Source of the DNA: Chlamydiota bacterium
GTDB taxonomy: Bacteria; Chlamydiota; Chlamydiia; Chlamydiales; Parachlamydiaceae
Direction of reading: 5' to 3'
Assembly: GCA_013286645.1 (NCBI GenBank)
Contig: JABDFJ010000004.1
Span: 12 to 64,011, forward strand
DNA: 64,000 nucleotides
Below the pieces are notes generated by a model. The model ran no database searches. It saw only the letters and a list, made by a program, of their open reading frames with translations, and was not told the origin of the DNA. The translations under genes were made by a program, and so were the position numbers. Numbering within the stretch: the stretch's first letter is position 1; each line of letters opens with the position of its first letter. Positions 5,192 to 45,472 of this stretch are shown piece after piece.

Positions 5192-7336
5192 ATGATTCGC
5201 ATAACGCAACCTATACTTCTACTCCTGCTACTCACGTTTATCCCACTCCATGCGGATTCATTGAGCGAGCAAGAAAATCTCATGAACGACCTCCTCATCG
5301 TCGATTATTGGAACAAAAAGATCAACGACCGCCTTCCCGTCACATATAACAACCTCCTACAAGGCGGATATTTTGCCATGCCCTCCGCCCGCATGGGCGC
5401 CGATGGCGAAATCGGCGGCGGCTATGCCTATGTCCCTCCCTACCGCCTTTATAATATCCGCTGCCAAATCCTCGACCGCCTCGAGCTCTCTGGCAACTAC
5501 CGCGTCTTCCATGGCGTTAAAGACCCCGTCCTCTCCCAACATGGCTTCGGCGACTTCTCCGATAAAGGGGCTAACCTCAAATTTTCGCTTTTTAGTCCGG
5601 AGGATAGCGAATATCAGCTCCCAGGAGTAGCCCTTGGCTGTGAAGACTTCATCGGCACGCGCGCTTTCAATGCCCAATATTTAGTCTTTACCCAAGTATT
5701 CTTAAAGCAAAATCTCGAGATTAGCTTAGGCTATGGCATCAACCGCATTCGTGGTTTCTTTGGTGGCTGCAACTGGATGCCGTTTCGCAAAAGCTGCTGG
5801 CCGCTGCTCGACTCGCTAAGCTTAACCGCCGAATATGACGCCACCCCCTATCGCAGCAAAAGGATAGAACCCCACCCCAGAGGTCACACCAAAAATTCCC
5901 CCTTTAATTTTGGCATGAAATACCGCATTTGGGACTATTTCGATCTATCTTTGAGCTATATGCGTGGGCATACTCTCTCGTTTACAGCTTCGGCCTTCTA
6001 CAACCTCGGCCACACCAAAGGCTTCCTGCCTAAAATTGATGATCCTCTGCCCTACAAGGCCCCCATCAACGTGGAACCTATCGGTATCCGTCGCCCCGAA
6101 GATGCTCTATCCACAGAGCTCCTCTTTGCCTTCCAAGAGCATGGACTGACACTACTTGACATCTACCTCTCATACAACACCTGCAACCGAAAAGTCCTAC
6201 GTCTGAATGTACTCAATGAAACCTACCGCCTAGAAAACGACCTACGCATTCGCCTCAACCACTTTTTAAGCGCCCTGATTCCAAGAGATATCGACGAAGT
6301 CATCATCGTCATCAATTCCGAAGGCTTTCCGATCCAAGAATACCGCTATCAAATGGAATATGTGCGCATGTATGCCGCCAAGGAGATAGGGCCGCACGAA
6401 CTTAAAATCCTCACGCCCCTGCATGAGGTCAGCTGGCCTAATCCCTACACCTCGGCCCACCTCTTACAACGCAAACGCCATCTCTATAACTTTGAATTAG
6501 CCCCTCGCATCCCCGCTATCTTCGGCAGCGCCAGTGGAAAATTCAAATACGCCCTAGGACTCAATGCCGACTTCAATGGCTTTCTATGGAATGACATTTA
6601 TTTTAGCGTACTTTTGGGATACAATTTCATTTCCCATCTTGGCAAAGCGCAAGGGCACGACAGATTAAATCCCTCACAGATCATTCAAGTGCATTCCGAT
6701 GTCATTCGCTATTACCATCAAACGGGTTTGCAATTGGATAATGCCTATCTGCAAAAAAACTGGAATATGGGCTGTGGCTGGTATGGGAAAATTGCTGCCG
6801 GATATTTCGAAGAAGAATATGGCGGCATTGCCAGCCAGCTTCTCTATTATCCTGTCTCTTCTCCATGGGCCATCGGCTTTTCTTATGCCGTCCTCAAAAA
6901 GCGCTCCTATAAAGGATGGGGTTTCACCAGTAAAGTCCGTAAACTTGATGGCTTAAAGCTCACTCACCGCAAATTTCTGGGGACTCAAGGCTTTTTACAC
7001 CTCTATTACGATTGGGAAGCCGCGCGCATGGATTTCAAAATCAGTGCGGGTAAGTTTTTGGCCAACGATTGGGGAGTGCGCAATGAGATCTCGCGTTATT
7101 TTCCTAGCGGCCTGCGCTTGACCTTGTGGTATACGCTGACAAATGGACATGACAAAGTCAATGGGAAGACCTATTACGACAAGGGGATAGCGTTTTCTGT
7201 GCCCTTCGATATCCTCTACACCTATAGTGAGCGCACACGTTGGACCTATGGCATGTCAGCCTGGCTGCGCGACGTCGGCGTGCAGTCCATGACCGGCCTC
7301 GACCTCTACGAACTCATCAACGACCAACGTCAATGA
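5192..7336 (+). CDS. YjbH/GfcD-family outer-membrane exopolysaccharide protein
   Basis: 714 aa with a signal peptide. LLQGGYFAMPSARMGADGEI matches the YjbH GLLQTPTARM..EGE motif. DKGANLKFSLF....PGVALGCEDFIGTRAFNAQYLVFTQ matches the DKAFDLKLRL....[25 protein letters not shown] region of E. coli YjbH as I recall it. Confidence 0.65.
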   Translation: MIRITQPILLLLLLTFIPLHADSLSEQENLMNDLLIVDYWNKKINDRLPVTYNNLLQGGYFAMPSARMGADGEIGGGYAYVPPYRLYNIRCQILDRLELSGNYRVFHGVKDPVLSQHGFGDFSDKGANLKFSLFSPEDSEYQLPGVALGCEDFIGTRAFNAQYLVFTQVFLKQNLEISLGYGINRIRGFFGGCNWMPFRKSCWPLLDSLSLTAEYDATPYRSKRIEPHPRGHTKNSPFNFGMKYRIWDYFDLSLSYMRGHTLSFTASAFYNLGHTKGFLPKIDDPLPYKAPINVEPIGIRRPEDALSTELLFAFQEHGLTLLDIYLSYNTCNRKVLRLNVLNETYRLENDLRIRLNHFLSALIPRDIDEVIIVINSEGFPIQEYRYQMEYVRMYAAKEIGPHELKILTPLHEVSWPNPYTSAHLLQRKRHLYNFELAPRIPAIFGSASGKFKYALGLNADFNGFLWNDIYFSVLLGYNFISHLGKAQGHDRLNPSQIIQVHSDVIRYYHQTGLQLDNAYLQKNWNMGCGWYGKIAAGYFEEEYGGIASQLLYYPVSSPWAIGFSYAVLKKRSYKGWGFTSKVRKLDGLKLTHRKFLGTQGFLHLYYDWEAARMDFKISAGKFLANDWGVRNEISRYFPSGLRLTLWYTLTNGHDKVNGKTYYDKGIAFSVPFDILYTYSERTRWTYGMSAWLRDVGVQSMTGLDLYELINDQRQ

Positions 7337-7358: not shown

Positions 7359-7969
7359 TAGCTTAGACTTTAGTCCAATGTCATTAAGTTAAGAGATAAG
7401 TGATTTAATATTAGGGGTTCTAAAGAGCTCCAACGGAGCAAACAGGTGTAAAGCCCACAGTGTAGCGCTGCCGGCGCAAACTGTGGGGATACGAAAACAA
7501 ATATAGAGCTCCAACGGAGCGGCCAGGTGTTCTTCCATGACATGACTACAGCACACCTGGTCGCTCCGTTGGAGCTCAGATCCCCTTTTTATGAGACCCA
7601 CAGTTTGCGCCGGCAGCGCTACACTGTGGGCTTTACACCTGTTTGCTCCGTTGGAGCTCTTTAAACTTCTTCATAGTAAGTTACTTACCTCTTAACTAAA
7701 CGACATTGGACTTTAGTCTGAGCTTTAGCCTGCCACGCGCCGCCTGCGGTAGCAAGGCGAGGCGCGCTCACGTGTGGCAAAGTGCTGTTATCACAAAATG
7801 CGCTAAGGCTAAGGTTAAGGCTAGAGTGCATGGGGCTAAGGCGGCGGTCACTAGGGTGCAACAGGTGTGAGGCCACGACACCAAGCGCGTCACGCATCGC
7901 TACCGCTCGCTGCGCGTGGCATGGCTAAAGCCATGCCAAAACGAGCTCAGACTAAAGTCTAAGCTACAA
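7358..7969. repeat. Whole-spacer nested palindromic composite: outer arms, family-B element (7425..7659) and family-I element (7718..7969)
   Basis: Outer arms are gtagcttagactttagtc (7358..) and gactaaagtctaagctac (..7967). Family B has perfect 63-bp inverted arms gagctccaacggagcaaacaggtgtaaagcccacagtgtagcgctgccggcgcaaactgtggg, with a second inner arm pair carrying one mismatch. Family I (gccacgcgc...gcatcgctaccgctcgctgcgcg...gccaaaacgagctcag) recurs at 16985..17263. Confidence 0.9.
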
Positions 7970-8006
7970 TGCTGGAACTCTGCGATCTTGCTGAAAGGGT
8001 GCCTAT

Positions 8007-9932
8007 CTATTCATTGCTAGGCTTGGGAAATTGATAGCGTTGGATAAAAATATTTCCCCGATTGTTGGTATCAATCGTCATGCCTTTATAGCCTAGCCTT
8101 ATGTTGGAATCATTACTTTCATTGGTCATCGAAAATACGATGAACAGCTGGTTCTTACTATTCACCGACATCCGCAACCCTTCTAAAGTTGTACTAGCAT
8201 ATTGACTAGTTTCAATGGCAATGTCGGCGGTTTTAATACCCATAACACGCGCGTCAAAAGAGTGCGGCGTCACACGCCTTTCTTCCACAAAATCCAAACC
8301 GATTCCCGTACTGCCACCGGTAGGGTCATCCACTTCTTTATAGATATCCAACCACACATCTGTCTGCAAAGGCTTGGTAAATATATCTTCGCCGGGACGC
8401 CCGGTCCAATTTCTAAAATCGTAATAGGCCACGACATAATGGCCATCATGCGTCATGAGGGCGTACTGTCCAAACGCTTGCTGTTTACCAAAAGGGATGT
8501 TGGTGGGAGTACGATTGATCTGCACGGAGCGCGACCAACTTACCCCCTGGTCGCTGGAAGCACTCACCAGTACATAGGGAAAAATCGATGCTATTACCTC
8601 ATCATCGGGAAATGCTGCTCGATTACCCGCCCCATAAGTCAAATAGATGCGCCCTGTAAAGGGACTCACAATAGGAGAGGTGCCTTGACCTGAAGTTCCA
8701 TTCAATACCTGAACCACTCTGGGTAAAATGGTCCCAGGATCGTGCGCTAGAGCAGCGAAAATATATTGCTCTGTGGTGCCAGCCACCTCCAGCCAGGTCT
8801 TTCCATTATCCAAGGATCTGACAACAGCTTGATCATAATTCGTGTCAAATGGGGTTCCTAAATAGCTTTTGGCTCCAATCTTAGGATACTGGCGTAAAAT
8901 GGGTAATAGAAGCACATTGTGGTCAACCACCAGTGGATGCGCCGAACTAAGACTAAGTCCTCCAAAGGCCAAATAAAAGGGGTTCGTAATCTGTGGATCA
9001 AAATGTTTGGCTTTCCATACCGGATCCCCTATCAAACTATAAACTTGTTTGGGTTTAGAAAAAGTGCTGCCCCCATTTTTAGAGCGAAAATAATAGAGAT
9101 TCCCAAGCAGATTATCTGTGCTAAAATTGTCGACAGTTGAAAATAGAGGAAACATCGAACTAGCATGAATGAGCTCATTATGGGCCGGATCGATCGTCGT
9201 ATGAAACTCTCTTGGCCCTTGGCCTAGAGGTACAAAAGGACCACTGGTGATCCACCAATTCACAGGAGAGGTTAAAACAATATTAGGCTCGGCCCAACTC
9301 TTCCCATTATCGTCTGAATAGGTAAACAGAAATCCGGTCTCAGGAACTGAATTACCGTGATTCAGCACCATATCGTCAAACCCGTGGCCTGAAGCAAACA
9401 GTCTCCCCTGCTTATTATATTGCATAAATAAACCTGGACCAAGGGAAGCATTGATAATTTGCGAAATGTGGCCGCCCAAGGGTATAATCTGTTCCACCGG
9501 GGGGCCATAACTCCAAGATTTGCCTCCATCTGCCGATAAGGCAATAGTATTCGTACCTATGGTAGTCAAAAAAGTGAACGAAGCATCATACACGATATTT
9601 TGCCCAATTTGAATGGACATAATATTATCGTCTAAAGGATTGAAGATCACAGGCGAACTGGCGGTATAGGTGTTTGTCTGCAATAGAATATCCGACAGAT
9701 AACCTGGAGTTCCTCCGGCGTACACAGGCTTCTGGTAATGGTTATCCATCACCGCCCGCAAATTTGCTAGGATGGGATCAGGGTTAGCCGGACCGGGCGT
9801 GGGACTGATCCTCTGGGCGCCGCCGATGGGAATGGCGACAGGGCACGTCCCAAAAATTGTGCCGCCGCTGATGATAAGCGCACTCAATAGTGTTAAAGCC
9901 CATTTCGCTGCATATTCATACCAACAAATCAT
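8007..9932 (-). CDS. BNR/Asp-box repeat protein (sialidase-like beta-propeller), exported
   Basis: Five Asp-box-like motifs: GGKSWSYG, DDNGKSWAEP, SKNGGSTFSKP, LDNGKTWLEV, SSDQGVSWSRS. There is an N-terminal hydrophobic signal or anchor. Confidence 0.7.
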   Translation of the reverse strand: MICWYEYAAKWALTLLSALIISGGTIFGTCPVAIPIGGAQRISPTPGPANPDPILANLRAVMDNHYQKPVYAGGTPGYLSDILLQTNTYTASSPVIFNPLDDNIMSIQIGQNIVYDASFTFLTTIGTNTIALSADGGKSWSYGPPVEQIIPLGGHISQIINASLGPGLFMQYNKQGRLFASGHGFDDMVLNHGNSVPETGFLFTYSDDNGKSWAEPNIVLTSPVNWWITSGPFVPLGQGPREFHTTIDPAHNELIHASSMFPLFSTVDNFSTDNLLGNLYYFRSKNGGSTFSKPKQVYSLIGDPVWKAKHFDPQITNPFYLAFGGLSLSSAHPLVVDHNVLLLPILRQYPKIGAKSYLGTPFDTNYDQAVVRSLDNGKTWLEVAGTTEQYIFAALAHDPGTILPRVVQVLNGTSGQGTSPIVSPFTGRIYLTYGAGNRAAFPDDEVIASIFPYVLVSASSDQGVSWSRSVQINRTPTNIPFGKQQAFGQYALMTHDGHYVVAYYDFRNWTGRPGEDIFTKPLQTDVWLDIYKEVDDPTGGSTGIGLDFVEERRVTPHSFDARVMGIKTADIAIETSQYASTTLEGLRMSVNSKNQLFIVFSMTNESNDSNIRLGYKGMTIDTNNRGNIFIQRYQFPKPSNE

Positions 9933-10257: not shown

Positions 10258-10638
10258 ATGGATCGTGCTGAATTAGAACAAAAAATTATTGCTAAAGCAT
10301 GGAAAGACCCCGCATTCAAAAAGAAATTGTTAGAAAAACCGAAGGAAACTATTCACCGCTTTGTCCAAGAGGTCTATCATAATCAAGATATTCTCCCCAA
10401 AGATGTCAAATGTCAGGTGCTTGAAGATAACGGTAATATGCTCACAATTGTGATCCCGCCGACCCCAGAAAATAGTGGTGAACTGTCAGAGGCTGACATC
10501 GCGCAGGTTGTAGGAGGGAAGGGTTCACCCAACCATAGTAAGAGTGCTAGAAATCCTAGAATCATTTATCATCCTAGTAACCAAGAAAACTTTGGTGCTG
10601 GTGGGAAAGGGATTATAAGATCTGCCGATGTGGGTTAA
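10258..10638 (+). CDS. NHLP (nitrile hydratase leader peptide) family RiPP precursor; leader aa 1-87 ending VVGG, 39-aa core
   Basis: RAELEQKIIAKAWKDPAFKKKLLEKPKETI....LPKDVKCQVLEDNGNMLTIVIPPTP....ELSEADIAQVVGG matches the NHLP leader consensus (ELExKIIxKAWxDxxFKxxLLxxPKxxI...LPxxVxxxVxE...xLxLVLPPxP...LSxEELExVAGG). The Shine-Dalgarno is strong. Core: KGSPNHSKSARNPRIIYHPSNQENFGAGGKGIIRSADVG (10519..10635). Confidence 0.8.
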   Translation: MDRAELEQKIIAKAWKDPAFKKKLLEKPKETIHRFVQEVYHNQDILPKDVKCQVLEDNGNMLTIVIPPTPENSGELSEADIAQVVGGKGSPNHSKSARNPRIIYHPSNQENFGAGGKGIIRSADVG

Positions 10639-12733: not shown

Positions 12734-12814
12734 GATAAACCTTAATTTAACGGAACATCTAAATATAAATATTATTTTGATTTAATCAACATGTTTCATC
12801 ACGAAGAAAATGTA

Positions 12815-13327
12815 GAGCTCCAACGAAGCAAACAGGTGTAAAGCCCACAGTGTAGCGTAAACGAGATGGCGACGCCTCTGGGTGCGCCGCTTGCCTAAAG
12901 TCAATTGTGAACCTTTCTGTCCCTGTCTCTAATGTCCCTAAAGTCGCTTAAGTCCCTAATGTCCCTACTTTTGGGTGATAGGAATGGTGCTCGTCATCTC
13001 AAATTTAGGGACCTTAGGAGGTAATTGCATAATTCCCGTTTATCGCTTTTTGGCGCTTTTGCCAACCTTCGCCACTTTGCGCAAATCCCCTACTCTTAAG
13101 AGTATGTGGATTTGCGCAAAATGGCGAATCTTGCCAAAATCATCCAAAAATCGATTAAAACGGGACTTATGCAATTACCTCTTAGGGACTTAAGCAACCT
13201 AAGGGACATTAGAGACAGGGGCAGAAAGACGATGCATTTGATCGCAAGCGGCGCTGGAGCGCCGCATATCAAGAGTCTCTACTTGACACCTGTACCGGCT
13301 TTACACCCGGTCGCTCCGTTGGAGCTC
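12815..13327. repeat. Nested repeat: degenerate family-B arms enclosing gtccctaa modules enclosing family-A core (13018..13181)
   Basis: Left arm gagctccaacgaagcaaacaggtgtaaagcccacagtgtagcg. Right arm ggctttacacccggtcgctccgttggagctc. Inverted gtccctaa/ttagggac module blocks sit at 12920..12968 and 13181..13222 around the A core. Confidence 0.85.
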
Positions 13328-13334
13328 TGTGATC

Positions 13335-16300
13335 TTACTTCTGCTTCATCACATAGACCCCATCCCAACCTTCTGGAATTGGTCCCTGGAGGAATCCTTC
13401 ACAACGTTCGATGAATAAAAGGGTGGATGGATTGCCTGGACTTAGTTGCAGAGCTTCCTTAAATTGATTTAAGGCTTCAGCAAAATTTCCTTTTTCATAG
13501 GCTCTAAAAGCCGCCTCATAGAGCTTGTTAAAAGCTAGTTTGTTAGCATCGACACTATTTGTAAAGCTAACCTCGTACAAATAGATCGCCTTCTTTTTCC
13601 CTTTAACCACCACTTTATCTAACAAACGCATGATATACTGCTTCTCATCTTGTAGCGCGTGGATGGTACTTTCACTGGCTAAGAATTCGGTGCCATAAAA
13701 CTTATTCAGACTCTCAATACGTGAAGTGAGGTTGATCGTATCGCCAATCACATTGGCACTAAGGCGTTCTTTTTCCCCCAAGATGCCGATCATGGCCATC
13801 CCTGTATTCAAAGCATAACCTACTTTCACCGCAGCTAGATGACCAGCTTGACTTTGATTGAAAGCTTCTTGCGCTTCTTTCATGGCTTGGATGGCTCTTA
13901 TGCCGTCGTCAGCACTGCGAGGAAACAGCGCCATGATGCCATCACCCATAAACGAGTTGATAAAGCCATTATGCGCGCGAATGATGGGGGCCACAGCTTC
14001 TAGATAGGCATTAATGAAGACAAAAGCTTCTTCTGGAGTTTGCTTTTCCATGATACTGGTGTACCCACGGATATCACTAAACATCGTTGTCACCATTACA
14101 TCGATAGCTTCACCTAGCTTGACATCTTGGATATGCTCCTTATGCAAGATATCGAAATAGTTTTTAGGCACAAACCTCTCCGTCGCCCGATATAGAATCT
14201 GTAACCTCTCATACCTCCTCCTAAGCACTGCTGTCCGCCACATGTGGATTATATAAATCACCGTGAACACACAGCTTAAATAGATACCATATGCCCACCA
14301 TGTTCTATACCACGGAGGAAGGACCCTAAAGGTATAAGTGATGGGCTCACTCCACACACCAAAAGGACTGCGTGCTTTGATTTTCAATTGATAGGCCCCT
14401 TCAAATATATTGCCAAAGTCGGCGCTGGTCCCCTTTGAAGGAGGGCTCCAATCTTTGTTATACCCCTCTAGCTTATATTGATAGAGCACGTTTTGCGCCC
14501 GATCGGGTTCAATGGCCATGAAATCAAAGGTCAGATGATTGTATTCGTAAGGAAGTTTAAGATCTTCGGGTAGATAGTAAAATTTCGTGATGCCTGTAAA
14601 GGTGAGAGCGCCAAATTTACGCCGCATCACCTCGATCTCTTCTTTAGTTAAAGTCCTGCCGAAGGTGATCTCTTCTTCGGCAACATTTGGAGCAACGGTA
14701 CCCTTGTCAATGGGCAACTCATTCTCCTTCAAATCATACCAACTCACTTTTTCGTCGTTGACCTTCATGTTTTGAATGACCACATGGGGAGGGGCTTTGG
14801 TGGTATGCAGGGCAGCGTAATCAAAACGCACCAAACCGGTTTTGTCCGATCCTGTGCCGAACCAAATGATTCCTTCTTTATCAAGGAAGATACTATTTTG
14901 ACCTGAGTTCAAATCAGGGATAGGGTATCCCGTTTTCTCATTGAAAATTTCAAACACAGGGGTATAGTCTTTCAGCTCAGCATTGGACACGTTATTTTGG
15001 GCAGGGAGTTTCGCTGTCGCTTGGTTGCCAGATGGTTTCCGAATATATTCTTTTAAAATCGCTATGCCTTTATTCGTGCCGATGAGTAGATCTTGTTGTG
15101 GCGTGGCAATCGTGCGATAAGCTAAATTATCGGGAAGGCCTTGTAAAGTGGTATAGGTAAGGAATGATTTTCCATCATAGCGCAGCAAACAACTGTCGGT
15201 GTTGATCCATAAATTCCCCATTGTATCTTCAAAAATGCTTATGGCGAAATTATTGCCGAGTCCTTGCTCCTTTGTATAATTTGTGAACGTGTGGCCGTCA
15301 AATTTACTGATCCCCTCATTTGCACTAAGCCACAAATTTCCATGACTGTCTTTTAAGATACTTTTAAGATAATTACCCACTAACCCCTGCTCAGTGGTGT
15401 AATTCGTAAACGAAGTACCATCGAACCTACTCAAACCACCACCAAAGGTGGCAAACCATATATCACCCGCTTGATCTTGGTAGATACAACGCACATCGTC
15501 ATTGCCAAGTCCTTGGGCTGTAGTGTAGGTAGTAAACGACTTGCCATCGAATTTGGCAACTCCACCTCCATGTGTGCCAAACCACAGATAGCCCTCTTGG
15601 TCTTCTAAGACACCTCTGACTTCATTATAGGGCAACCCTTGCGCCGTTGTATAGTTGGTAAACTCTTTGCGATCGTACTTCGTTAACCCTCCAAGCGTAC
15701 CAAACCACATATTGCCCGAGGTGTCGTTAAGAATACTCATGACACCACTATTACCTATCCCTTGCACGCTAGTATAGTTTTGAAAGGCCTCTCCCTCATA
15801 ACGACAAACCCCTCCTTCTTCAATGCCGAACCATAGATTTCCAATTTTATCCTCAACGATAGTCAAGACGGTGCTGCCAGATAACCCATTGCTCTTTGAA
15901 ATATTGGTAAAGGTTTTTCCATCATAACGGCTGGCCCCTCCTTTATCGGTGCCGAACCATAGATTTCCTTTAGTGTCTTCAAAAGCTACCCAAACTTTGT
16001 TTTTAGCAAGGCCTTCGGCTTGTGTAAAATTGACAAAGGTTTTGCCATCATACTTGCTCACCCCATTTTCGGTAGCAAACCACAGATTGCCGGCTTTATC
16101 TTGCACAACAGAATGCACGAAATTATCGGCTAACCCTTGTGCCTTGGTGTAGTTAGTAAACGCTGTTCCGTCGTATTTGCTCACACCATCCTGCGTAGCA
16201 AACCAAATATTTCCCTCTCGGTCTTCTGTGATGCTCCACACAGAGTTATGCACTAATCCTTGAGCTACAGCATAATTCTTAAAGGATTTTCCATCGTATT

Positions 16301-16984: not shown

Positions 16985-17263
16985 TTGTAGCTTAGGCTTC
17001 AGCCTGAGCTCGTTTTGGCAGGCTCGTAGCTTAGGCTTCAGCCTGAGCTTTAGCCATGCCACGCGCAGCGAGCGGCAGCGATGCATGACGCGCTCGATGT
17101 CGCGACCTCACTAACGTTAGGCAAATCCCCGAGGCGTCAACAGCAGACACCTTCGCAACGTCCACACTTCCAAAACACCGAGCGCGTCATGCATCGCTAC
17201 CGCTCGCTGCGCGGGCAGGCTCAAGCCTGCCAAAACGAGCTCAGGATAAAGCCTAAGCTACAA
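16985..17263. repeat. Family-I palindromic element, copy 2
   Basis: ttgtagcttaggcttcagcctgagctcgttttggcagg...gccacgcgcagcgagcggcagcgatgcatgacgcgctcg and its inverse cgagcgcgtcatgcatcgctaccgctcgctgcgcg...cctgccaaaacgagctcagg...gcctaagctacaa. Confidence 0.85.
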
Positions 17264-17272
17264 TCCTGCGGC

Positions 17273-20131
17273 TTACCAGCGGGCTTCTACCCCTGCTAAG
17301 TAATTGAAGGAAGAAATCCTTTCCCAACGTTGTCCAGAAAATTCCCCATAGAGTGTCCATCCTTCCATAATTTCTTTAGAAATGGTGACAGCTCCTTCAA
17401 AGCTATTGCGCTCTTCAGAGACCCCTTTAATCTTAAAGGGCGTGCCAAAGGCGCGAAAGCGCTCATTGAGGTGATCTTGTCTCTCGGTAAAGCGATATTG
17501 CCAGGCTAAATCTACACTTAAGGCTAAGTCATCACACAATTCTTGTGTGAGGTGCAAACCGAGGCTACCATAAGCATTGAAGAGGTGCTTCTTAAACACC
17601 ACTAAATCTAGTGAATCGGCGCCATGTTCCGAAAATTTGTCGCGCTGGGCATAGCTCAGCTCCACACCAAGAAAAGGCTGCACGAGGATACATTCCCAAC
17701 AGAAATCTTTACCTGCCTCCAGATAGAAGGTGCCTTCATAAATTTGAGGCTTGCTGTGCGCTGTGCGCCTGATGTCTCCAAAGTCGATATGACGCTTGAC
17801 TTTGTTGTCGCTGGCCCCAAAGATAGCATCGGCCATCACATAGTAGTCACAAGGACGATATAACCCGTAAAGTCCACCTAAATAGGTATGATTAGTACCA
17901 TCACCATTACCTCGATAGTGCACGTGATCGAGCGCATAGCCAGCGGCAACACCTACAGTTAAATTCGACGCAATCGCTGCTTGTCCACCGCCAGCGAGTT
18001 CAAAACCGCTAGTCGTAAAGCGTGCTTCATGTTGGTTGCCGCGCACGAAGCTGCGGCTGCCGCCCACTTCAAACCAAAAGTCTAGCTCACAATTGGCCGG
18101 ACAGCAGTCGCTTGCGCAAGGCACCGTGGTGACGAGCGCGCGTACTGGGTCGTAGAGACGTTTTAAAAACTGACGGTTGGTGATCTCGGTTGTCAGCAAT
18201 TCGCTGAGGTATTGCTGTCCTGTCATTTGGTCTAGTGCCTTACTAGCTTGATGTGGCGATAGCCCCACCAGTGTGTTCAAAATCAGCGTTTCATCCACAT
18301 TGGGATTGACGATGCTATCGAGTTGCTCGGCTACAGCTCTTTCATTCGATGTTTCGGCTGCATTGACCAGCGTGGTTTGCACGCTAAAGAAGGCATCAGT
18401 GGCATCATACGATAGGATTGCACCCACAAGCGTATTGTCGGTAATGGTTGAGCTAACGCCGGCAAATGTCCCACTTAGTCCATTGACGGCATGCAAGATG
18501 TCATATGGGGTGTTGAGCTTATATTGTCCATCTGTCGAGGCGACGACCACTTCGCCTCCTTCCAGCGAGGCACTTCCTGCGACATTGATGAGACTGCTAG
18601 CGCCTGTCTCATCGATTTGCACTTGATAGGTCGTGTTGGCATGTTGCGAGTAGTTGCCACCTACATTTAAGGTGCCAATGCTATTACCTGGAGCGATGGT
18701 ACCTCCTGTGGCTACGGTCAGGTTGTTTTGCACTATACCTATACCTTTGAGGATACCCGTATGGGCAACTGTCGTACTGCCACCACCTAGGGTGGTGTTT
18801 AACACCAGTGCACCAGCATTGACAAATGTCGTGCCGTTAAAATCGGCTACGTTTGAAGTTTCCTGACTAAAAGTGAGAGCTTTAGATCCATCTTTAAGCA
18901 CTTTACCGTTACCAGCGATAGTGCCGTTAAAGGTGCCATCGGCATTATCTAGAGTAAATTGCAACGTCGCCTGGTTATCAATCGAGCCTTGTAAGGTTTT
19001 AGTATTACCTACCAACGTACCATCCAGGATAGTAGTTCCCCCACTATATGTGGATATGCCATCGAGGATCAAAGTGCCGCTGCCTTGTTTGATTAAGCTG
19101 CCAGTACCGATAATCTCACCTTTGAATGAGCTCTCAGTAGTATTGACAACTGTCAGCGTGCCACTACCCAAATTGACTGTACCGCCATTAGTGTCGGAAT
19201 CAAGTCCCGCAATCGTATTGGAAAAGTTATTAAGATCTAAGATGCCTATCGATTCACGCACCGAGTTACTTAAAGCTACTGCTGAATGTGGCGAAAAAGC
19301 ATCGTCTGCTCCCGCTCGCAATGTGCCATTAGGAATCTGTGTTATTCCACTATAGGTCACAACATTGCTACCTGCCAATGTAAGAGCTGAAGGGGGAGGA
19401 GGGGGGCCAAAGTTGGACTCTACTCCAATTTCTAATTTTCCCGTTCCTGATATGCTACCATAATAGGTCGTGTCATTTTCCCCAACAATAACCAGTGTGC
19501 CACTTCCCAATAACACCGTGCCTGACGTGGCTGCATAATCAGCCAAGGTTAATATTTCGACAATATGGTTATTAAGATCTAAGGTGGCGCTGCTACTTAG
19601 ACCATCGCCTAAAATGACCGCTGAGTTGAACGAAAAACCGAAATCTGCTCCGGCTTGCAATGTGCCGCTACGCACTAACGTGTCGCCGCTATAGTCGGTG
19701 CCATTAAAAAAAACGCCTTCCAAAATCAATGTGCCAGTATTTTCCATAGTGAGTCCAGCCGTGCCATTTAAAGGCAGCTGGATATCTACCGTAGAATTAG
19801 CATCCCCGCCCGCTATCAATATACTAGAGCTGACATTCACTGGATTGCCCATTAAAGTATATGAGCCGCCATTGGGAGGATTGATGGTCATGCTATTGGG
19901 CTGTACGAATTCATCATTATTGGAGATAAAGCGAGTGACACCACTAGCCGGAAAAGTCATGTCGCACCCATCGTTCGGGGATTCCCCCGGAGGGATGGAA
20001 GTCCAATTGGTTGGATCGCTCCAATTTTCAGAGGTGAGGCCATTCCAGGTGATCATTTGGTCAGGTATAGCTGTTAAGGAAGCGCTCATTACAAGCAGCT
20101 GGCAGGTCGCGAGGGCAAACTTCTTATGCAT
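17273..20131 (-). CDS. Pmp-like autotransporter with autotransporter-associated beta-strand repeats
   Basis: Signal peptide MHKKFALATCQLLVMSASLTA (ATG 20131 behind GGAGAA). Multiple G(S/T)GTL.(L/V).G..TYSG.T.I..GTL repeats. The C-terminal beta-barrel domain ends LAGVEARW. Confidence 0.8.
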   Translation of the reverse strand: MHKKFALATCQLLVMSASLTAIPDQMITWNGLTSENWSDPTNWTSIPPGESPNDGCDMTFPASGVTRFISNNDEFVQPNSMTINPPNGGSYTLMGNPVNVSSSILIAGGDANSTVDIQLPLNGTAGLTMENTGTLILEGVFFNGTDYSGDTLVRSGTLQAGADFGFSFNSAVILGDGLSSSATLDLNNHIVEILTLADYAATSGTVLLGSGTLVIVGENDTTYYGSISGTGKLEIGVESNFGPPPPPSALTLAGSNVVTYSGITQIPNGTLRAGADDAFSPHSAVALSNSVRESIGILDLNNFSNTIAGLDSDTNGGTVNLGSGTLTVVNTTESSFKGEIIGTGSLIKQGSGTLILDGISTYSGGTTILDGTLVGNTKTLQGSIDNQATLQFTLDNADGTFNGTIAGNGKVLKDGSKALTFSQETSNVADFNGTTFVNAGALVLNTTLGGGSTTVAHTGILKGIGIVQNNLTVATGGTIAPGNSIGTLNVGGNYSQHANTTYQVQIDETGASSLINVAGSASLEGGEVVVASTDGQYKLNTPYDILHAVNGLSGTFAGVSSTITDNTLVGAILSYDATDAFFSVQTTLVNAAETSNERAVAEQLDSIVNPNVDETLILNTLVGLSPHQASKALDQMTGQQYLSELLTTEITNRQFLKRLYDPVRALVTTVPCASDCCPANCELDFWFEVGGSRSFVRGNQHEARFTTSGFELAGGGQAAIASNLTVGVAAGYALDHVHYRGNGDGTNHTYLGGLYGLYRPCDYYVMADAIFGASDNKVKRHIDFGDIRRTAHSKPQIYEGTFYLEAGKDFCWECILVQPFLGVELSYAQRDKFSEHGADSLDLVVFKKHLFNAYGSLGLHLTQELCDDLALSVDLAWQYRFTERQDHLNERFRAFGTPFKIKGVSEERNSFEGAVTISKEIMEGWTLYGEFSGQRWERISSFNYLAGVEARW

Positions 20132-20216
20132 TAAAATTCTCCAGTATTTCTTTTGTGAGTTATTCTCCATTTATGAAGATGTAAAGAATATTTTGTCAAA
20201 AGATAACTCGCAAGCA

Positions 20217-20878
20217 TGGACGACATGGACTGCATGGACTGAATGGACGACATGGACGATATGGACAAAGCACGATCTCGCGTTTGGAGCTTCAAAGAAG
20301 CGGCCAGGTGTAAAGCCCACAGTGTAGCGCTGCCGGCGCAAACTGTGGGAATACGAAAACAAATATAAAGCTCCAACGGAGCGGCCAGGTGTTCTTCCAT
20401 GACATGACTACAGCACATCTGGTCGCTCCTTTGGAGCTCAGATCATTTTTTTGTGCGACCCACAGTTTGCGCTGGCAGCGCTACACTGTGGGCTTTACAC
20501 CTGGCCGCTTCTTTGAAGCTATAAGTGCGCCATGACGCTTTGTCCATGCCGTCCATTTCGTCCATGTCGTCCATTCGAGGTGATTGCATAATTCCCGTTT
20601 AATCGATTTTTGGATGATTTTGGCAAGATTCGCCATTTTGCGCAAATCCACATACTCTTGAGAGTAGGGGATTTGCGCAAAATGGCGAAGATTGGCGAAA
20701 GCGCCAAAAAGCGATAAACGGGAATTATGCAATTACCTCATTCAGTCCATTTCGTCCATGTCGTCCAAAAATTGGTGTCAGGCCTGCGATTTGCGATTTG
20801 ACATGTTCTTAGAAATACTATGAGAGGGAGCAAATCACAAATCACAGGCCTGACACCAATTTTTTCTCGGCCTCTACA
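20217..20878. repeat. 660-bp spacer made entirely of concatenated repeat modules: tggac block, family B (20286..20520), gtcca block, family-A core (20577..20739, inverted), gtcca block, family E (20768..20878)
   Basis: tggacgacatggactgcatggactgaatggacgacatggacgatatggac at 20217..20266. The family-B arms are near-identical to 7425..7659. The A core is the reverse complement of 4541..4703. The E element is an inverted copy of 271..389. Confidence 0.9.
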
Positions 20879-22316
20879 GCGTGCTTGAATGGGCCTGCTG
20901 CAGGCTGGGCTTTGCCAAGCGCACATACACAGACACCACTACATAGGCCAACAACGAGCAGCTGGCGCCGAAGGTGGCAGCAGAAAACAAGATGTTTTCG
21001 CCATCTGAAAAGAGCTGCTGCCCATGATAGAGGATATAGCCCGCCCAGCACACCAGCCCACCTAATAATGCTGCCCAGGCAGATGGGCGCGTCGCGCCCT
21101 TCCAGAACAGTGCCGCTGAAGCTGGCACGAAGATCGACACAAAGAGGGTCGCTCCCGAATGGACCATCATGTCGAAAATGGTCTGGCCACTTAATGCCAA
21201 CGCAAAGGAAAGCATGGCAATGAAAATATTTGTCCAGCGTAGATACGATATTTTCCGCTTTTCGTTCGCCGTAGGCCACATTTCTAAGATGATATTTTTG
21301 GTAACAAGTGATGTACCTGCCAGCAGATAGCTATCCGCCGTGCTCATGATAGCTGAAAAGATGCCGCAAGCAAAAATGGTAAATAGCAACGGCGAAAGAT
21401 ATTCTTTGGCCAAGAGCGGCATCAACAGTTCAGGGCGTTCCAAAGAGGGAAAGATATCCCTGCCGGCCAAACCGATAAATAAGGGAATCATGCCCAGCAA
21501 CAAATACAAAAAAGCTCCCACAATAGAACTATAACGAGCTACCGCAATCGAACGACACGCCAAGGAACGCTGAATGAGATCTTGTCCCATGATCGCCCCA
21601 AGTCCCGTCATCAAGATTCGTCCGCTATATGCAAGCCAATCAACGCTAGCTTGATTTGAGGGCAGCAGCGTAAAAAATTCATTGCGAAAGAGGGTGAACA
21701 AAGCATCATGATCTGGCGTATGGGTCAAGCTCACAGGCACCAGTAAGGCTAATCCCAGCATCAGCAATCCTAGCTGAATGAAATCGGTGATACTCACCGC
21801 CCACATCCCACCAGAGACCGTATACACAACGACAATCATCGAGCCAATGAAGATCCCCATTTCTGCTTCCATGCCAGAGACAATGTGAAAGATATACCCC
21901 ATAGCCAACATCTGCGAAGCCAAAGTACCAATGTAGAAGGGTATCATCAAGACCGTCGCCACCCGCTCGAAACGGGCTCCATAGGCCTGGCGCAGCAAAT
22001 CTGAAATCGTGGTGAGCTTCATACGCCTAAAAGGGGCGGCATAAAATAGACCTGTAATCAGCAGGGCTAAAGAACACCCAAAAGGATCGGCTAACACACC
22101 GAAATAGCCGTTAGAATAGACTGTCCCTGAGACCCCCATACATGAGCCAGCCCCAAACCACGTGGCGACAATCGTGGGTACCGCCAAATAGAAGGGCAGA
22201 CGCCGTCCAGCAATCAAATAATCATCCATCGTATTGACACGGCGACTGGCAAGATAGCCGACTGCGAGCATCAGTAGAAAATAGAAGCCTGTGCCGATTA
22301 GGAAAATTGCGCTCAT
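20874..22316 (-). CDS. Sodium:solute symporter family (SSF) transporter
   Basis: Polytopic membrane protein. DYLIAGRRLPFYLAVPTIVATWFGAGSCMG is typical of the PutP/PanF/SglT family. ATG 22316 overlaps the hemB stop (ATGA). Confidence 0.8.
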   Translation of the reverse strand: MSAIFLIGTGFYFLLMLAVGYLASRRVNTMDDYLIAGRRLPFYLAVPTIVATWFGAGSCMGVSGTVYSNGYFGVLADPFGCSLALLITGLFYAAPFRRMKLTTISDLLRQAYGARFERVATVLMIPFYIGTLASQMLAMGYIFHIVSGMEAEMGIFIGSMIVVVYTVSGGMWAVSITDFIQLGLLMLGLALLVPVSLTHTPDHDALFTLFRNEFFTLLPSNQASVDWLAYSGRILMTGLGAIMGQDLIQRSLACRSIAVARYSSIVGAFLYLLLGMIPLFIGLAGRDIFPSLERPELLMPLLAKEYLSPLLFTIFACGIFSAIMSTADSYLLAGTSLVTKNIILEMWPTANEKRKISYLRWTNIFIAMLSFALALSGQTIFDMMVHSGATLFVSIFVPASAALFWKGATRPSAWAALLGGLVCWAGYILYHGQQLFSDGENILFSAATFGASCSLLAYVVVSVYVRLAKPSLQQAHSSTL

Positions 22317-23377
22317 GGGCAATCATCGCCTTTGAGCAAACGCTCGGCCATCTCGCGGGCGGCATAGGTGAAGATAAAGTCCGCTCCGGCGCGTTTGATC
22401 GCATATAAACACTCTTTCATCACGCGATCGCCATCGATCCACCCATTCAGGGCGGCGGCTTTCACCATAGCATATTCCCCACTGACATGATATCCACCTA
22501 CAGGAAGGTCTGTTCTTTCGCGCACCTTAGCAATAATATCGAGATAGGCCAGGGCAGGCTTAATTAGCAGCATGTCAGCCGCTTCATACTCATCTAGAGC
22601 GCATTCGATGAGCGCCTCACGTGCATTCGCTGGATTGAGCTGATAGGTTTTCTTATTGCCGAATTTCGGCGCTGAGCTAAGAGCTTCGCGAAAGGGACCA
22701 TAAAAGGCAGACGCATATTTGGCAGCATAGGCCAAGATGCTGACGTCGACGAAACCAGCTTGATCTAACGCCATACGAATGCTGCCGATGCGTCCATCCA
22801 TCATATCGCTGGGGGCTACGACATCAGCCCCTGCCGCAGCCGCCAGTACTGACAGCTGTGCCAAGATAGCTACCGTCTCATCATTGATCACGTCCCCTGT
22901 TTCATTCACCACGCCATCATGCCCATGACTCGTGAATGGATCGAGGGCTATATCTGCCATGACACAGAGTTCAGGGAATTCCGTTTTCAAGGCCGCGATA
23001 GCACGCAAAAATAAATTATTTTCCTGCAGTGCCACTGTGCCCCATGCGTCTTTATCTTCGCTGGCCATGACAGGAAAAAGATCGACGGCTTTGATCCCTA
23101 GATTCAAGAGGATTTCTACTTCTTTTAGTAGCAAGTCAATCGACAGACGATAGACACCTGGCATGCTGTTAATGGGTTGCTTTTGGGCTTTTCCATCGAT
23201 GACAAACAAGGGAGCCACAAAATTGCTGGGATGTAAACGCGTTTCTTGCAACAGCGCACGCATAGCAGGGGATTTGCGATTGCGGCGGGGGCGTTTAGGC
23301 AGATCGATCAAAGGAGGTTGCGGTTGGCGGATCCATGTCGCCGCATTAGAAACATCAGAATCGGTTGTTGTATGCAT
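22313..23377 (-). CDS. hemB: Porphobilinogen synthase (delta-aminolevulinate dehydratase)
   Basis: RPRRNRKSPAMRALLQETRLHPSNFVAPLFV, plus the active-site region ...DIALDPFTSHGHDG... and ...SAFYGPFREA.... Full-length HemB-like. Confidence 0.9.
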   Translation of the reverse strand: MHTTTDSDVSNAATWIRQPQPPLIDLPKRPRRNRKSPAMRALLQETRLHPSNFVAPLFVIDGKAQKQPINSMPGVYRLSIDLLLKEVEILLNLGIKAVDLFPVMASEDKDAWGTVALQENNLFLRAIAALKTEFPELCVMADIALDPFTSHGHDGVVNETGDVINDETVAILAQLSVLAAAAGADVVAPSDMMDGRIGSIRMALDQAGFVDVSILAYAAKYASAFYGPFREALSSAPKFGNKKTYQLNPANAREALIECALDEYEAADMLLIKPALAYLDIIAKVRERTDLPVGGYHVSGEYAMVKAAALNGWIDGDRVMKECLYAIKRAGADFIFTYAAREMAERLLKGDDCP

Positions 23378-23530
23378 AAATTGTTTACCTTAGTTTGTTA
23401 ACAAATAATGCTAACAATGATGTGATTATGATTCAAGGATTAGCGATTTTTCTAGGCAATAATATCTTTTTTTTTGATGATCGCTATTTTATAAAAAAAT
23501 ATCACTATATGTCTTTACAGTGAGGAAAAT

Positions 23531-25072
23531 ATGTCAGTACGAGTTCCAGTAGGCAGCAGGAGCCCATATGACTCCTTTGCCACGCCATCTTCCGTGGTTG
23601 CGACCCTCCAAAAGCCGACAAGCCCCCTATCTCTCAATGAAGTGCAACTAACACCGCATCCTAAAGAATCGGAGGAAGATTCTACGACGAGCACACATTC
23701 CTTAAGTAGCCTAGGCGGTGGTCTTGGCCCGCTACATAAACAATATTCAACAGCAGATTTGGTTGACATTATCAGTCAACGGGACACCACCAGAGACCGT
23801 TTAGCACAACTACGTGAGACCAAAGAATTGTCTCAAAGACAATCTATCGTTCCAGAAGCACTCGCGCTGGTTGACCCAAAAAAAACACTCAAGCGCTTAG
23901 ATGATGACACGTTACAGCGAAGCACTTCCATCTGGGATTGTGGCAGACCCAAGATTACATTAGAAAATTTGCAAAGTAGATTACTGCTTCGTAAAAATTT
24001 CATCCAAGAAATCGCTGAGACATTAGGGCAATTTATGAAGAAAAACCCTAATCCTACAGCGGCGGACATCAGCCCCTACAAAGACATGCTCACAAGAGCT
24101 AGTCACTATCTGAACGGCATTCGAATCGACGCTATACTAAAACTTGATGAACTTTTTAACGAAACTATCTGTTGCGGACAGATTTCTAAAGAATGGGCTG
24201 CTTCCGAAGTAGTGACTTATGTCCAATATGTATCGGGCTTAACAACTCTCATAGCTGCACTTGCTACCGCTATTCTAGCCTCACCTATTGCCGCTCTAAT
24301 CACTATAGGAACAACAGCTGTGGCTAGCGCATCGACGGTGGCGAAAGATGACGCAGTTGAATATAAAGAAACCATCAGAAAAGTCTCCGAAGTGTTAGAA
24401 GGCGCGCAAGCCTCACACAGTCAAGTTAAAGTAGCCAAACAAGTCTTAAAAATGCTAATGACCTCACGAGAACAAAATATGCAATATGCAGCTGCAGAAT
24501 TTGAACATCGCATCGGTTTTATTCCAAAGGAAAGCAAATTGCGCGAAGTTCTCACTTGCGAACAAGCGACCCACCTCTACCATAGCGCTTCGACAAGCAC
24601 ATCTGCCACTTCACCAACGCATCGCACAACGCCCATCGGTCAATCGCCTCCAGAACGCCCTCCAACGGTTTTACAAGCTAACCAAAATCAACAGATTTCA
24701 CAACTCCAACAGCAAGTCGAGGAGTTAAGTCAACTTATCGCTGAAATGAGCCGTAGCTATGCAGCCACTAAGCCTGAAAGGTCGCATATCTCAAGATATC
24801 ACGCCTCAAAAGATGATGATCTTGGGTCTGAAGTGCGTGAAGGCGATCCGGGTGAAGAAGAAATCGAGACAGACACTGGTCACACTAGACCTACTGATAC
24901 CGAGCCCACACATCATTCACGCAGCAAAGAAGAAAAAGCAGATCCTCGAGACGTTACCTACGACTTTGTCGATGGCACCGAAGAACTACCCGAGGAACCA
25001 AACGGTCGCCCTAACGTACCTCATAGACAGTGTGATATGCTGCCCTTCGGCTTGCACCCATCACGCCATTGA
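23531..25072 (+). CDS. Hypothetical protein with a central bilobed hydrophobic domain (Inc-like candidate) and an acidic, low-complexity C-terminus
   Basis: About 44 uncharged residues, VTYVQYVSGLTTLIAALATAILASPIAALITIGTTAVASASTVA (about 24212..24343), are flanked by long hydrophilic regions. GAGGAAAA Shine-Dalgarno. No recognisable enzyme motif. Confidence 0.5.
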   Translation: MSVRVPVGSRSPYDSFATPSSVVATLQKPTSPLSLNEVQLTPHPKESEEDSTTSTHSLSSLGGGLGPLHKQYSTADLVDIISQRDTTRDRLAQLRETKELSQRQSIVPEALALVDPKKTLKRLDDDTLQRSTSIWDCGRPKITLENLQSRLLLRKNFIQEIAETLGQFMKKNPNPTAADISPYKDMLTRASHYLNGIRIDAILKLDELFNETICCGQISKEWAASEVVTYVQYVSGLTTLIAALATAILASPIAALITIGTTAVASASTVAKDDAVEYKETIRKVSEVLEGAQASHSQVKVAKQVLKMLMTSREQNMQYAAAEFEHRIGFIPKESKLREVLTCEQATHLYHSASTSTSATSPTHRTTPIGQSPPERPPTVLQANQNQQISQLQQQVEELSQLIAEMSRSYAATKPERSHISRYHASKDDDLGSEVREGDPGEEEIETDTGHTRPTDTEPTHHSRSKEEKADPRDVTYDFVDGTEELPEEPNGRPNVPHRQCDMLPFGLHPSRH

Positions 25073-25104
25073 CATTGCGCTAAGTGTCAAATGAAGCCAT
25101 AAAA

Positions 25105-25480
25105 AAAAGGACCTAAAGAGGTAATTGCATAATTTCCGTTTAATCGATCTTTGGCGCTTTTGTAATCGTCTCGAATGGGCTCTACCTCCGAAAGAGACGA
25201 TTACATTAGTTTAGGCTTCAAACTAAATCCTGAGACTTGATAGCCCGGTGCTTTACCCCTGAAAGGGGTTACGGCTTGTAGCCCAGGGTAAGCGACAGCG
25301 CAACCCTGGGAGATTTATATTAGATGTTGTACCCCAGAAAGGGGTACGGGCATACTATGTGCGTTGCGGACAAAAATGGCCCGCACCCCTTTCTGGGGTG
25401 CTATATTGTATTCTTATATACCCAGGGTTACGCTGCCGCTAACCCTGGGCTACAAGCCGTTACCCCTTTCAGGGGTATAA
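25105..25480. repeat. Family-A 5' fragment plus family-H nested palindrome (25242..25480)
   Basis: aaaggacctaaagaggtaattgcataatttccgtttaatcgat, followed by arms cccctgaaaggggttacggcttgtagcccagggt... and ...accctgggctacaagccgttacccctttcagggg, with inner hairpins (ccccagaaagggg/cccctttctgggg). Confidence 0.8.
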
Positions 25481-25558
25481 TACAGCAGATTTTTACTTAT
25501 GCAATCATCTCTAAAAGAGCACGGTCGCTTAGTCCTTTAGGTCGTTTATCCTTTAAGC

Positions 25559-34493: not shown

Positions 34494-34610
34494 AAGAATA
34501 TATTACCTTTGGGGAGGCCTTGTTTTAATTACTTTGTTTATAGCTATCTCTTTATTTACATGCAAAGTGATTGTCGATCGCTCCAGACGAATAATCAATA
34601 AAACACCTTT

Positions 34611-34754
34611 TTGAAACACAGAGGCACAGAGAACACAGAGCGTTTGAGGTCTTGAGAAGCAATTACAAAGTTCTGTTTAATTGGATTTTGCAATTACGTT
34701 CCAAATAGATGAAACCAAACCTCTCTGTGTTCTCTGTGCCTCTGTGTTTCAAAA
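34611..34754. repeat. Family-D palindromic element (aaacacagaggcacagagaacacagag arms)
   Basis: ttgaaacacagaggcacagagaacacagag...ctctctgtgttctctgtgcctctgtgtttcaaaa. Related copies at 43987..44181 and 61086..61206, and a half-copy at 57148..57186. Confidence 0.85.
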
Positions 34755-34883
34755 TTCATTTTACACTCAGTCACTTGTCGATTTTCATAAATTTCATATT
34801 TTCTTTTAACCTTAAAAAGAGTATTCTCTTAATATTATTACGTTATTTTATTCTTAAAACGGCGCACAATATTTAGGGTTAGA

Positions 34884-36911: not shown

Positions 36912-36945
36912 TTTATTGAGTCTTGCGTGCCTGTTTTTCCAACGA

Positions 36946-37039: not shown

Positions 37040-37119
37040 TTATTTTACGTTGTGAATTTCGTTGATTTTTTATTGCCTACTCCTCATTTTGCTATATTGG
37101 AATAAAGAAGGTGACGATT

Positions 37120-45396: not shown

Positions 45397-45472
45397 TTGG
45401 AGAAGTTATGCCATCACCTCTCGAACTCTATATTCGAGAGAATGGCATTTTATTTTCTGTCCGTGTAATTTA

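Follow-up and report, generated by a model that had tools for sequence, protein, structure and literature searches.

A 703-bp spacer at positions 20171-20873 of a 64,000-nt stretch of chlamydial DNA (contig JABDFJ010000004.1; the whole stretch analysed here, hereafter the window) is composed almost entirely of palindromic repeats, which recur in other combinations throughout the window. [quoted passage not shown] The spacer would then have collected small palindromic mobile elements, non-coding and belonging to several unrelated families, that are mobilised in trans by enzymes whose genes lie elsewhere in the chlamydial genome. The most direct evidence comes from one of these families, family A, which behaves as a classical MITE: it has terminal inverted repeats, is flanked by a 4-bp duplication of its target and shows a target preference.

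Architecture of the spacer

The spacer is bounded by the start codon of an autotransporter gene on one side and by the stop codon of a gene for a sodium:solute (SSF) symporter on the other, and consists of four parts: a hairpin made of nonamer arrays (family M), a family B palindrome at its centre, a family A element in its right arm and a family E hairpin (Table 1). A BLAST partner, either its own opposite arm or a distant copy, was found for 90% of its length, and the remainder comprises hairpin loops as well as 46 nt of non-repeat DNA (20171-20216) that make up the whole gap between the autotransporter start codon and the pile-up. All of the blocks listed in the original prediction, which had been made from the sequence alone, are present, with the family B palindrome measuring 237 rather than 235 bp, whereas its statement that the spacer contains no unique sequence has to be softened to almost none. 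When folded as single-stranded DNA, the spacer reaches -268.9 kcal/mol, compared to -98.2 +/- 5.6 kcal/mol for dinucleotide shuffles (z = -30.7; 0 of 20 shuffles were as stable), with nearly all bases between 20217 and 20864 paired. A consensus scan detected no sigma-70-like promoter in the region 20000-21000, and a consensus promoter and terminator scan of the spacer returned nothing informative; the autotransporter promoter may lie inside an element.

The outer arrays of the spacer form a single hairpin with heterogeneous nonamer-array arms. The left TGGAC array pairs unit by unit and in register with the GTCCA nonamer arrays on the right (20542-20574 and 20745-20767), and the variable trinucleotides (GAC, TGA, GAC and GA(T/A)) also align between the two arms. 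GGAC/GTCC module hairpins of this kind are the hallmark of family M. The large palindrome in the spacer has its arms at 20234-20349 and 20459-20574, and the centre of family B (20404) coincides with that of the surrounding module hairpin to within a few nucleotides. The core of this family B copy is 95% identical to 7443-7641 over 199 bp; the family occurs at three loci in the window, and its terminal motif GAGCTCCAACGGAGC is found 10 times, as opposed to 1.0 expected from shuffles. The end hairpins of the B copies differ symmetrically, such that GCTCC-AAC-GGAGC in one copy corresponds to GCTTC-AAA-GAAGC in the other on both arms, indicating that the local hairpin and the long palindrome have both been kept.

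The family A element interrupting the right arm carries the 25-nt terminal inverted repeat GAGGTRATTGCATAATTCCCGTTTA at both ends (96% complementary; ends also GAGGTRATTGCATAA...), a pattern with 10 matches against 0.35 expected from shuffles. It is identical at 163 of 163 positions to the reverse complement of 4541-4703, located 16 kb away. Since the flanks of the two copies are unrelated, the element alone must have moved, and must have done so recently. A third full copy (13018-13181) shows 95.7% identity to it, the three full copies measuring 163-164 bp; in a fourth copy, the ends at 25118 and 25511 have been pushed apart by other palindromes, and a fragment adjoins family F at 45892-45935, giving five loci that extend from 4.5 to 45.9 kb, a span of about 41 kb. 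All four copies with both ends are bordered by a 4-bp direct duplication (ATTC, TAAA, CTAA and TAAA in element orientation), which in each case comes after G[A/T]CC, between GGAC-type modules. Deletion of 20577-20743, comprising the element and one ATTC, restores seven in-phase GTCCANNNN nonamers, and the empty sites rebuilt for the three copies checked (4.5, 13.0 and 20.6 kb) are regular in-phase 9-mer arrays. The preference for targets between G[A/T]CC modules explains why family A is always found inside module arrays, and it provides a case in which one small element demonstrably chooses the repeated module of another as its target. The inner arms of family A are asymmetric, being only 81% complementary, and thus give the element an orientation; because all copies have this asymmetry in common, whole elements rather than single arms must have been copied. 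The open reading frames (ORFs) overlapping family A had no protein family match. Structurally, family A fits the definition of a MITE, apart from the autonomous partner, none having been found.

The family E hairpin stops one base short of the symporter stop codon, with CTCGGCCTC as a remnant of its outer arm, and its predicted RNA folds to -61.8 kcal/mol on the minus strand and -60.9 kcal/mol on the plus strand (z about -10). Positions 20767-20864 show 85% identity to 271-378. The hallmark of the family is the core GGGGTCWGGCYTG, found six times in the window as opposed to 0.21 times expected from shuffles, together with two heptamers. All three family E copies adjoin gene 3' ends, and an E-like double hairpin is found in the same rmlB-permease spacer of a relative from a different genus-level lineage (L108), where the paired heptamers read GTATTCT and not TGATTTG as in the window. 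These two observations make a role as terminator or attenuator plausible, and we infer that family E may terminate transcription at gene ends; among the families, E alone resembles a terminator. However, the transcribed strand is not consistently the one with the U tracts or the G.U-rich one: the copy in the spacer has U5-6 on both strands, the copy at 271 has U7 only on the strand that rmlB does not use, and the copy at 52349 has none. A strand-specific RNA function was considered and rejected, as the T:G asymmetry inherited by the copies bears no consistent relation to transcriptional direction. A simple terminator scan did not call the family E copies, whose stems and loops are too long for it.

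It is likely that the nonamer-array hairpin and, at the symporter gene's 3' end, the terminator-like family E element existed before the family B composite arrived at the apex of the module hairpin, and that family A, as the most recent arrival, then inserted into the right arm. Earlier elements would have provided harmless landing sites for later ones and, in the case of family A, the preferred ones.

Distribution in the window and in related genomes

Self-BLAST identified 4,152 nt of repeats (6.5% of the window) in 15 spacers, 3,862 of them outside coding sequences (CDSs), and whole composites including their loops cover about 5.0 kb (7.8%). The original estimate of about 5 kb or 8% was therefore accurate, and the loci proposed for families A to I are exactly those recovered by self-BLAST. 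About ten families can be told apart, namely A, B, C, D, E, F, M and further ones located at 2.7-3.3, 17.0-17.3 and 25.25-25.48 kb. For A, B, D and E, the end motifs exceed their frequency in shuffles by a factor of 6 to 30. After correction for two ORFs at the window edges, non-coding DNA amounts to about 8.35 kb, of which about 46% is repeat. As anticipated, most spacers longer than 150 bp are occupied (14 of 18; the four without elements measure 153-418 bp), and no CDS is interrupted, the repeat bases in CDSs being limited to protein-internal repeats (15792-15968 and 44664-44813) and a few gene-edge bases. The family C palindrome at 61084-61205 spans the TTG start listed for a Xaa-Pro peptidase ORF (59897-61153); the family match of this ORF starts at residue 55, so its real start is probably located further downstream and the palindrome in the spacer. 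The ORFs inside elements lacked family matches, and nothing matching the elements was found among plasmids and phages.

The closest named relatives of the symporter are proteins from metagenome-assembled genomes (MAGs) of Parachlamydiaceae, Parachlamydia and Chlamydiae (65-67% identity over >90% of the query), and unnamed metagenome proteins reach 70-73% identity. Judged by these similarities, the host is an environmental chlamydia related to Parachlamydiaceae; GTDB contains no close genome, searches with the autotransporter and HemB having yielded no close locus there. A cyanobacterial origin or repeats of the HIP1 or STRR type were rejected, since GCGATCGC occurs once, as by chance, and the proteins point to chlamydiae. 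Local palindromes amount to 47.9 bp/kb in the window but only 1.97 bp/kb (median 0, maximum 28.6) in 758 kb of control DNA from 78 hemB loci of diverse bacteria, a difference of about 25 times, and tandem 6-12-mer arrays with a nearby inverted partner reach 0.25 per kb, compared to 0.014 per kb in the controls. In the two closest relatives, L082 and L086, palindrome density is higher still (67.9 and 142 bp/kb), and their spacers display the same nested style with modules of their own; a more distant Parachlamydiaceae MAG has 0-8 bp/kb. Positions 20831-25132 are matched at 100% by a Logan short-read contig from this strain, whose two ends fall within the family E hairpin and within a terminal repeat of family A, as multi-copy repeats are expected to break assembly. 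Given that the elements make up just under half of the non-coding DNA of the window and break short-read assemblies, they also bear on the quality of chlamydial MAGs.

Two further inverted repeats were observed in the relatives. In L082, a 331-bp near-perfect palindrome (8166-8496; 165-nt arms, 95% complementary, 1-nt loop) lies beside a family F copy upstream of hemB and overlaps a called 137-residue gene that is probably spurious; palindromes of about 331 bp are poorly tolerated in E. coli. In L086, a 71-nt inverted repeat (5262-5332 / 5799-5869) with 100% complementarity reaches the end of the metagenome contig within a YjbH gene and probably constitutes an assembly fold-back artefact rather than an element.

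Family F has a single copy in the window and the end sequence TATACCGAACGTGATTCAAAAGTTGGCATTTC. It is also found in L082 (84.5% identity), upstream of hemB, where the window has only a 153-bp spacer, in three GTDB chlamydial MAGs, namely the related ELA112, where it occupies at least 23 contigs, and two others, and on one JGI contig. The genes beside its copies, where checked, have housekeeping functions. The pattern scan also returned 14 single matches in unrelated taxa, compared to about nine estimated by chance for a pattern of that length. Between genomes that share about 70-76% identity in their coding DNA, family F copies show 80-95% identity. The ends of all copies read TATACC...GGTATA, and abutting and nested copies (L096, L102) are compatible both with a duplicated and with a non-duplicated TA. 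In the spacer upstream of an EamA transporter gene, MAG ELA112 carries family F (L097, 641-794) and the window family C (34494-34883), which points to independent insertions in the two lineages. A search for an autonomous partner in ELA112 was unsuccessful: the ORFs scanned beside or between F ends encode housekeeping proteins (SHMT, ClpP, TIM, rmlC/D and others) or have no Pfam match, and none encodes a transposase.

An alignment of 12 family F copies has 93.5% of its cells paired, and changes on both sides are seen in 21 of 65 pairs, as opposed to 8.0 +/- 1.7 in shuffled alignments (0 of 500 reached the observed value) and 3-8 when the partners were slid. These compensatory changes show that the hairpin has been maintained, and the mismatches, being conserved too, are incompatible with simple one-arm copying and subsequent fold-back. 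For family F, and for this family only, hairpin formation itself is shown to be under constraint. Family F, spread over related genomes with its hairpin kept by compensatory change, thus offers a case for studying the persistence of non-autonomous hairpin DNA in an obligate intracellular lineage. In families A, E and F, arm asymmetries that are conserved between copies show that whole elements are copied, and as a group the elements probably pass through, or act as, a single-stranded hairpin in DNA or RNA. Collectively, the target duplications and identical copies of family A, the assembly breaks and the dispersal of family F over the ELA112 contigs support the earlier proposal of an active non-autonomous element system.

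Table 1. Features of the spacer and of other element-bearing parts of the window.
Position	Strand	Feature	Details
1-228	minus	ABC-2 permease ORF	Runs off the window start
271-391		Family E copy	Between rmlB stop codon and ABC-2 permease start; ends GAGGCCGAG/CTCGCCTC; TTA on both sides
2670-3266		Outer module arms	CAGGATGGG and AACGATNN modules around palindrome 2871-3147; single arm again at 56979-57065
4467-4717		Module hairpin of GGACCTAAA type	4467-4539 plus tail; minus-orientation family A (4541-4703) in right arm; TTTA duplication (plus strand)
7360-7974		Palindrome 7360-7724	B composite (7425-7660) central; more palindromes at 7722-7931 and 7950-7969
12806-13328		Long decayed palindrome	B-type ends around GTCCCTAA module hairpin (12913-12967 / 13182-13228)
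16985-17268		Palindrome with GTAGCTTAGGCTTCAGCCTGAGCT units	Repetitive extragenic palindrome (REP)-like form; encloses 17062-17100 / 17175-17213
17273-20170	minus	Autotransporter gene	Start codon bounds spacer
20215-20266		Family M left arm	(CATGGACGA) x5.8; six tandem nonamers, core TGGAC; Tandem Repeats Finder period 9
20287-20523		Family B composite palindrome, 237 bp	Core 20305-20503; end hairpins GCTTC-AAA-GAAGC
20366-20439		B'	Smaller hairpin with B-type ends; exact centre of family B
20542-20576		Family M right arm, first part	GTCCATNNC units; ends in duplicated target ATTC (20573-20576)
20577-20739	+	Family A MITE-like element, 163 bp	In right arm of module hairpin; flanks ATTC/ATTC
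20740-20767		Family M right arm, remainder	Starts with second ATTC copy (20740-20743)
20767-20873		Family E hairpin	Hairpin 20767-20864; 34-nt arms, 94% complementary; A5 run before, T5-6 run after
20874-22322	minus	SSF symporter gene	Stop codon bounds spacer
25097-25555		Split family A	Ends 25118-25143 and 25497-25511; TAAA duplication; flanked by GGACCTAAA-type modules
34609-34754		Family C	CACAGAG-module arms; further copies 44013-44156, 57151-57188 (single arm) and 61084-61205
36945-37040		Stand-alone TGGAC module hairpin	Downstream of tetratricopeptide repeat (TPR)-protein gene; RNA fold -65 kcal/mol, z = -10.4
43773-43970		Family D	Ends GTACATGTTCA; CGTGCC arrays in arms; second copy 56671-56871
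45984-46148	+	Family F palindrome, 165 bp	Ends TATACCGAACG...CGTTCGGTATA; sole copy in window
52349-52455		Family E variant	Between two convergent genes
61392-64000+		MFS-like ORF	Runs off the window end; accounts for an apparent 2.8-kb gene-free stretch

Concentric nesting and alternative explanations

Many composites are single long palindromes whose concentric shells recur elsewhere in other combinations. Family B lies inside M at 20.3 kb, and M inside B-type ends at 12.8-13.3 kb, with the B shell of the latter palindrome centred at 13071.0 and the M shell at 13070.5. This M-type hairpin, composed of GTCCCTAA modules, in turn holds the family A copy at 13018-13181 with its TTAG duplication. 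A family C element is found within another palindrome at 44.0 kb, other palindromes, including 25254-25477, separate the ends of the split family A copy, and the GTACATGTTCA ends surround a different interior at 2871-3147 than at 43.8 and 56.7 kb.

Several observations weigh against an origin of these composites by insertion of mobile elements. For the concentric shells (B' within B, B within M and M within B), the centres mostly agree to 0.5-5 nt, which would not be expected from simple random insertion, and target duplications are absent. Target duplication, and with it a mechanism of propagation, is demonstrated for family A only, and the core of this family has no match in GTDB genomes and only two chance 21-mers in JGI metagenome contigs. 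The mobile-element reading also gives no account of the tandem oligomers of the arms, which vary between copies and between genomes. Moreover, in agreement with the original prediction, none of the approximately 50 window ORFs scanned matched a transposase family, and neither did the genes examined beside family F copies; similarly, no autonomous insertion sequence with matching ends was detected in the window or among the ORFs scanned next to or between the family F copies of ELA112.

To account for the concentric shells, insertion at the hairpin apex, exchange between palindromes and fold-back growth are all conceivable. Our preference is for apex insertion, given that the shells belong to known families of the window and have symmetric boundaries. 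Another scenario would be a structure-specific mode of propagation so far undescribed in bacteria, in which hairpins integrate at the apex of extruded hairpins or are rebuilt symmetrically from them by a clade-specific enzyme acting on single strands or cruciforms, with the modules serving as landing pads and the host tolerating long perfect palindromes, for instance because it is devoid of SbcCD-type cleavage. We regard this scenario as possible but improbable.

It appears unlikely that the palindromes are mainly host-functional and kept by selection as terminators or attenuators, RNA stabilisers or protein-binding arrays, with any spread being secondary. Such a role would be consistent with the position of the three family E copies, two of which have T runs after the stem, with the E-like hairpin in the rmlB-permease spacer of a relative from another genus-level lineage, with the co-variation of the family F stems and with the fact that 11 of the 15 composites touch a gene 3' end. 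However, the remaining four composites are located in divergent promoter spacers, and the G.U-rich strand of family E is oriented independently of the direction of transcription. Selection for a host function does not require the target duplications or the identical copies of family A, and ten unrelated families would be an unparsimonious solution for one job. Furthermore, the window contains no match to Rfam 15 at the gathering score, the spacer yielding only far-sub-threshold matches to miRNA precursors that are typical of long hairpins, and the elements were not flagged by the consensus terminator scan.

Growth of the composites in place, without transposition, through outward fold-back (hairpin-primed) repair or template switching, combined with slippage for the modules and exchange between arms, would produce shells that are concentric to within 0.5-5 nt and free of target duplications, module hairpins with arms matching unit by unit, symmetric differences between B copies and very long near-perfect palindromes such as the one in L082. 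We nevertheless consider it quite unlikely, as this process should capture unique flanking DNA, whereas the shells actually consist of family members found elsewhere. It also leaves unexplained the identical or near-identical segments at distant sites with unrelated flanks (family A at 100%, the family B core at 95%, family F across genomes), the family A target duplications and the conserved arm asymmetries. Finally, an assembly or amplification artefact, such as wrongly joined contigs or inverted-repeat chimeras created during multiple displacement amplification, is very improbable despite the L086 contig that ends in a perfect and possibly artefactual inverted repeat, given that the independent Logan assembly agrees at 100%, that the palindromes avoid CDSs and that the families recur with divergence, also in MAGs of other studies.

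Relation to known repeat systems and further features of the window

On the favoured reading, the window repeats can be compared with several known systems. Prokaryotic MITEs, including the Correia elements of Neisseria, the QMITEs of Coxiella and those of cyanobacteria, are likewise small, non-coding, multi-copy and intergenic, with stable hairpins and terminal inverted repeats, and family A additionally shares with them the target-site duplication. In contrast to MITEs, the window elements have no known cognate insertion sequence and are palindromic along their full length, not at their ends alone; their density is very high, at about 46% of the non-coding DNA, and their host is a chlamydia. 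The literature searched contained no account of repeats resembling MITEs or REPs in chlamydiae; its chlamydial genome papers treat insertion sequences but no elements of this type, and chlamydiae are unmentioned in the main text of two recent MITE surveys (PMC10969869, PMC11602168).

Taken together, the system is most similar to the BOX/RUP/SPRITE clusters of pneumococci (PMC10969869) and the mosaics of bacterial interspersed mosaic elements (BIMEs) and REPINs in proteobacteria (PMC3733652). In the pneumococcal clusters, unrelated small repeat families group together and insert into each other, BOX is modular with boxB repeated, and SPRITE is a mobile terminator-like hairpin (PMC10969869). The window families similarly cluster and nest, and family E, like SPRITE, appears terminator-like. 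There is, however, no sequence relationship, the modules of the window are 6-12-mers forming both hairpin arms, and nesting is largely concentric. BIMEs and the REP/REPIN systems with their REP-associated tyrosine transposases (RAYTs) comprise extragenic palindromic mosaics and hairpin doublets with long persistence in lineages, and the insertion sequences IS1397 and ISKpn1 target REP loops. In the window, repeats also serve as targets for others, and some units resemble GTAG plus a hairpin, with good single examples at 16987, 17026, 17261, 7967, 25278 and 25453. Unlike REPs, though, the units are far longer than 20-40 nt, and no RAYT gene is seen in the 64-kb window. A REP/RAYT origin is not favoured, as GTAG plus hairpin is not enriched (26 occurrences vs a mean of 24 for other tetranucleotides). 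Instead of the alternating REP units and conserved linkers that characterise BIMEs, the window composites contain concentric long palindromes of unrelated families.

Drosophila foldback (FB) elements, which are eukaryotic and kilobase-sized, also have long inverted arms made of tandem short repeats that vary between copies. They resemble the window elements in these tandem-repeat arms, an analogy of architecture only that implies no relationship. Selfish-looking hairpin repeats are reported to inflate intergenic DNA in Volvox organelles (PMC2670323) and sponge mitochondria (PMC2800124); they share with the window the setting of a small genome inside another cell, although in a different genetic compartment. 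The original prediction held that the window repeats go beyond ordinary REP or terminator hairpins. Their density, about 25 times that of the controls, bears this out, but nested mosaics of small repeats have precedents in BIMEs and in the pneumococcal BOX/RUP/SPRITE clusters (PMC10969869). The system is thus an unusually dense, modular form of a repeat type already known from bacteria, and for this lineage no report of it was found. Several elements are located upstream of genes for autotransporters or adhesins, or at the 3' ends of genes, where they could plausibly affect expression or termination.

A number of other features of the window deserve mention. GC skew is negative throughout positions 1-64000 and cumulative skew falls steadily, indicating that the window lies on one replichore, with a C-rich plus strand. 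A cluster for a bufferin-type ribosomally synthesised and post-translationally modified peptide (RiPP) at 44293-48076 comprises a 367-residue protein that ends in a BufA2-like C-terminal domain and carries a 63-bp tandem repeat (x2.6; 44658-44823), as well as the MNIO maturase BufB (46230-47180) and, at 47171-48076, a DUF2063 protein; family F is among the palindromic elements situated between its precursor and maturase genes. Adjoining an autotransporter gene, a 126-residue ORF (10258-10638) has a short match to nitrile hydratase alpha and, on this basis, may encode an NHLP-type RiPP precursor. Finally, the region 52468-58139 encodes a complete kynurenine route to NAD in a chlamydia, with genes for a KMO-like monooxygenase, kynureninase, tryptophan 2,3-dioxygenase, 3-hydroxyanthranilate dioxygenase and, in divergent orientation, quinolinate phosphoribosyltransferase.

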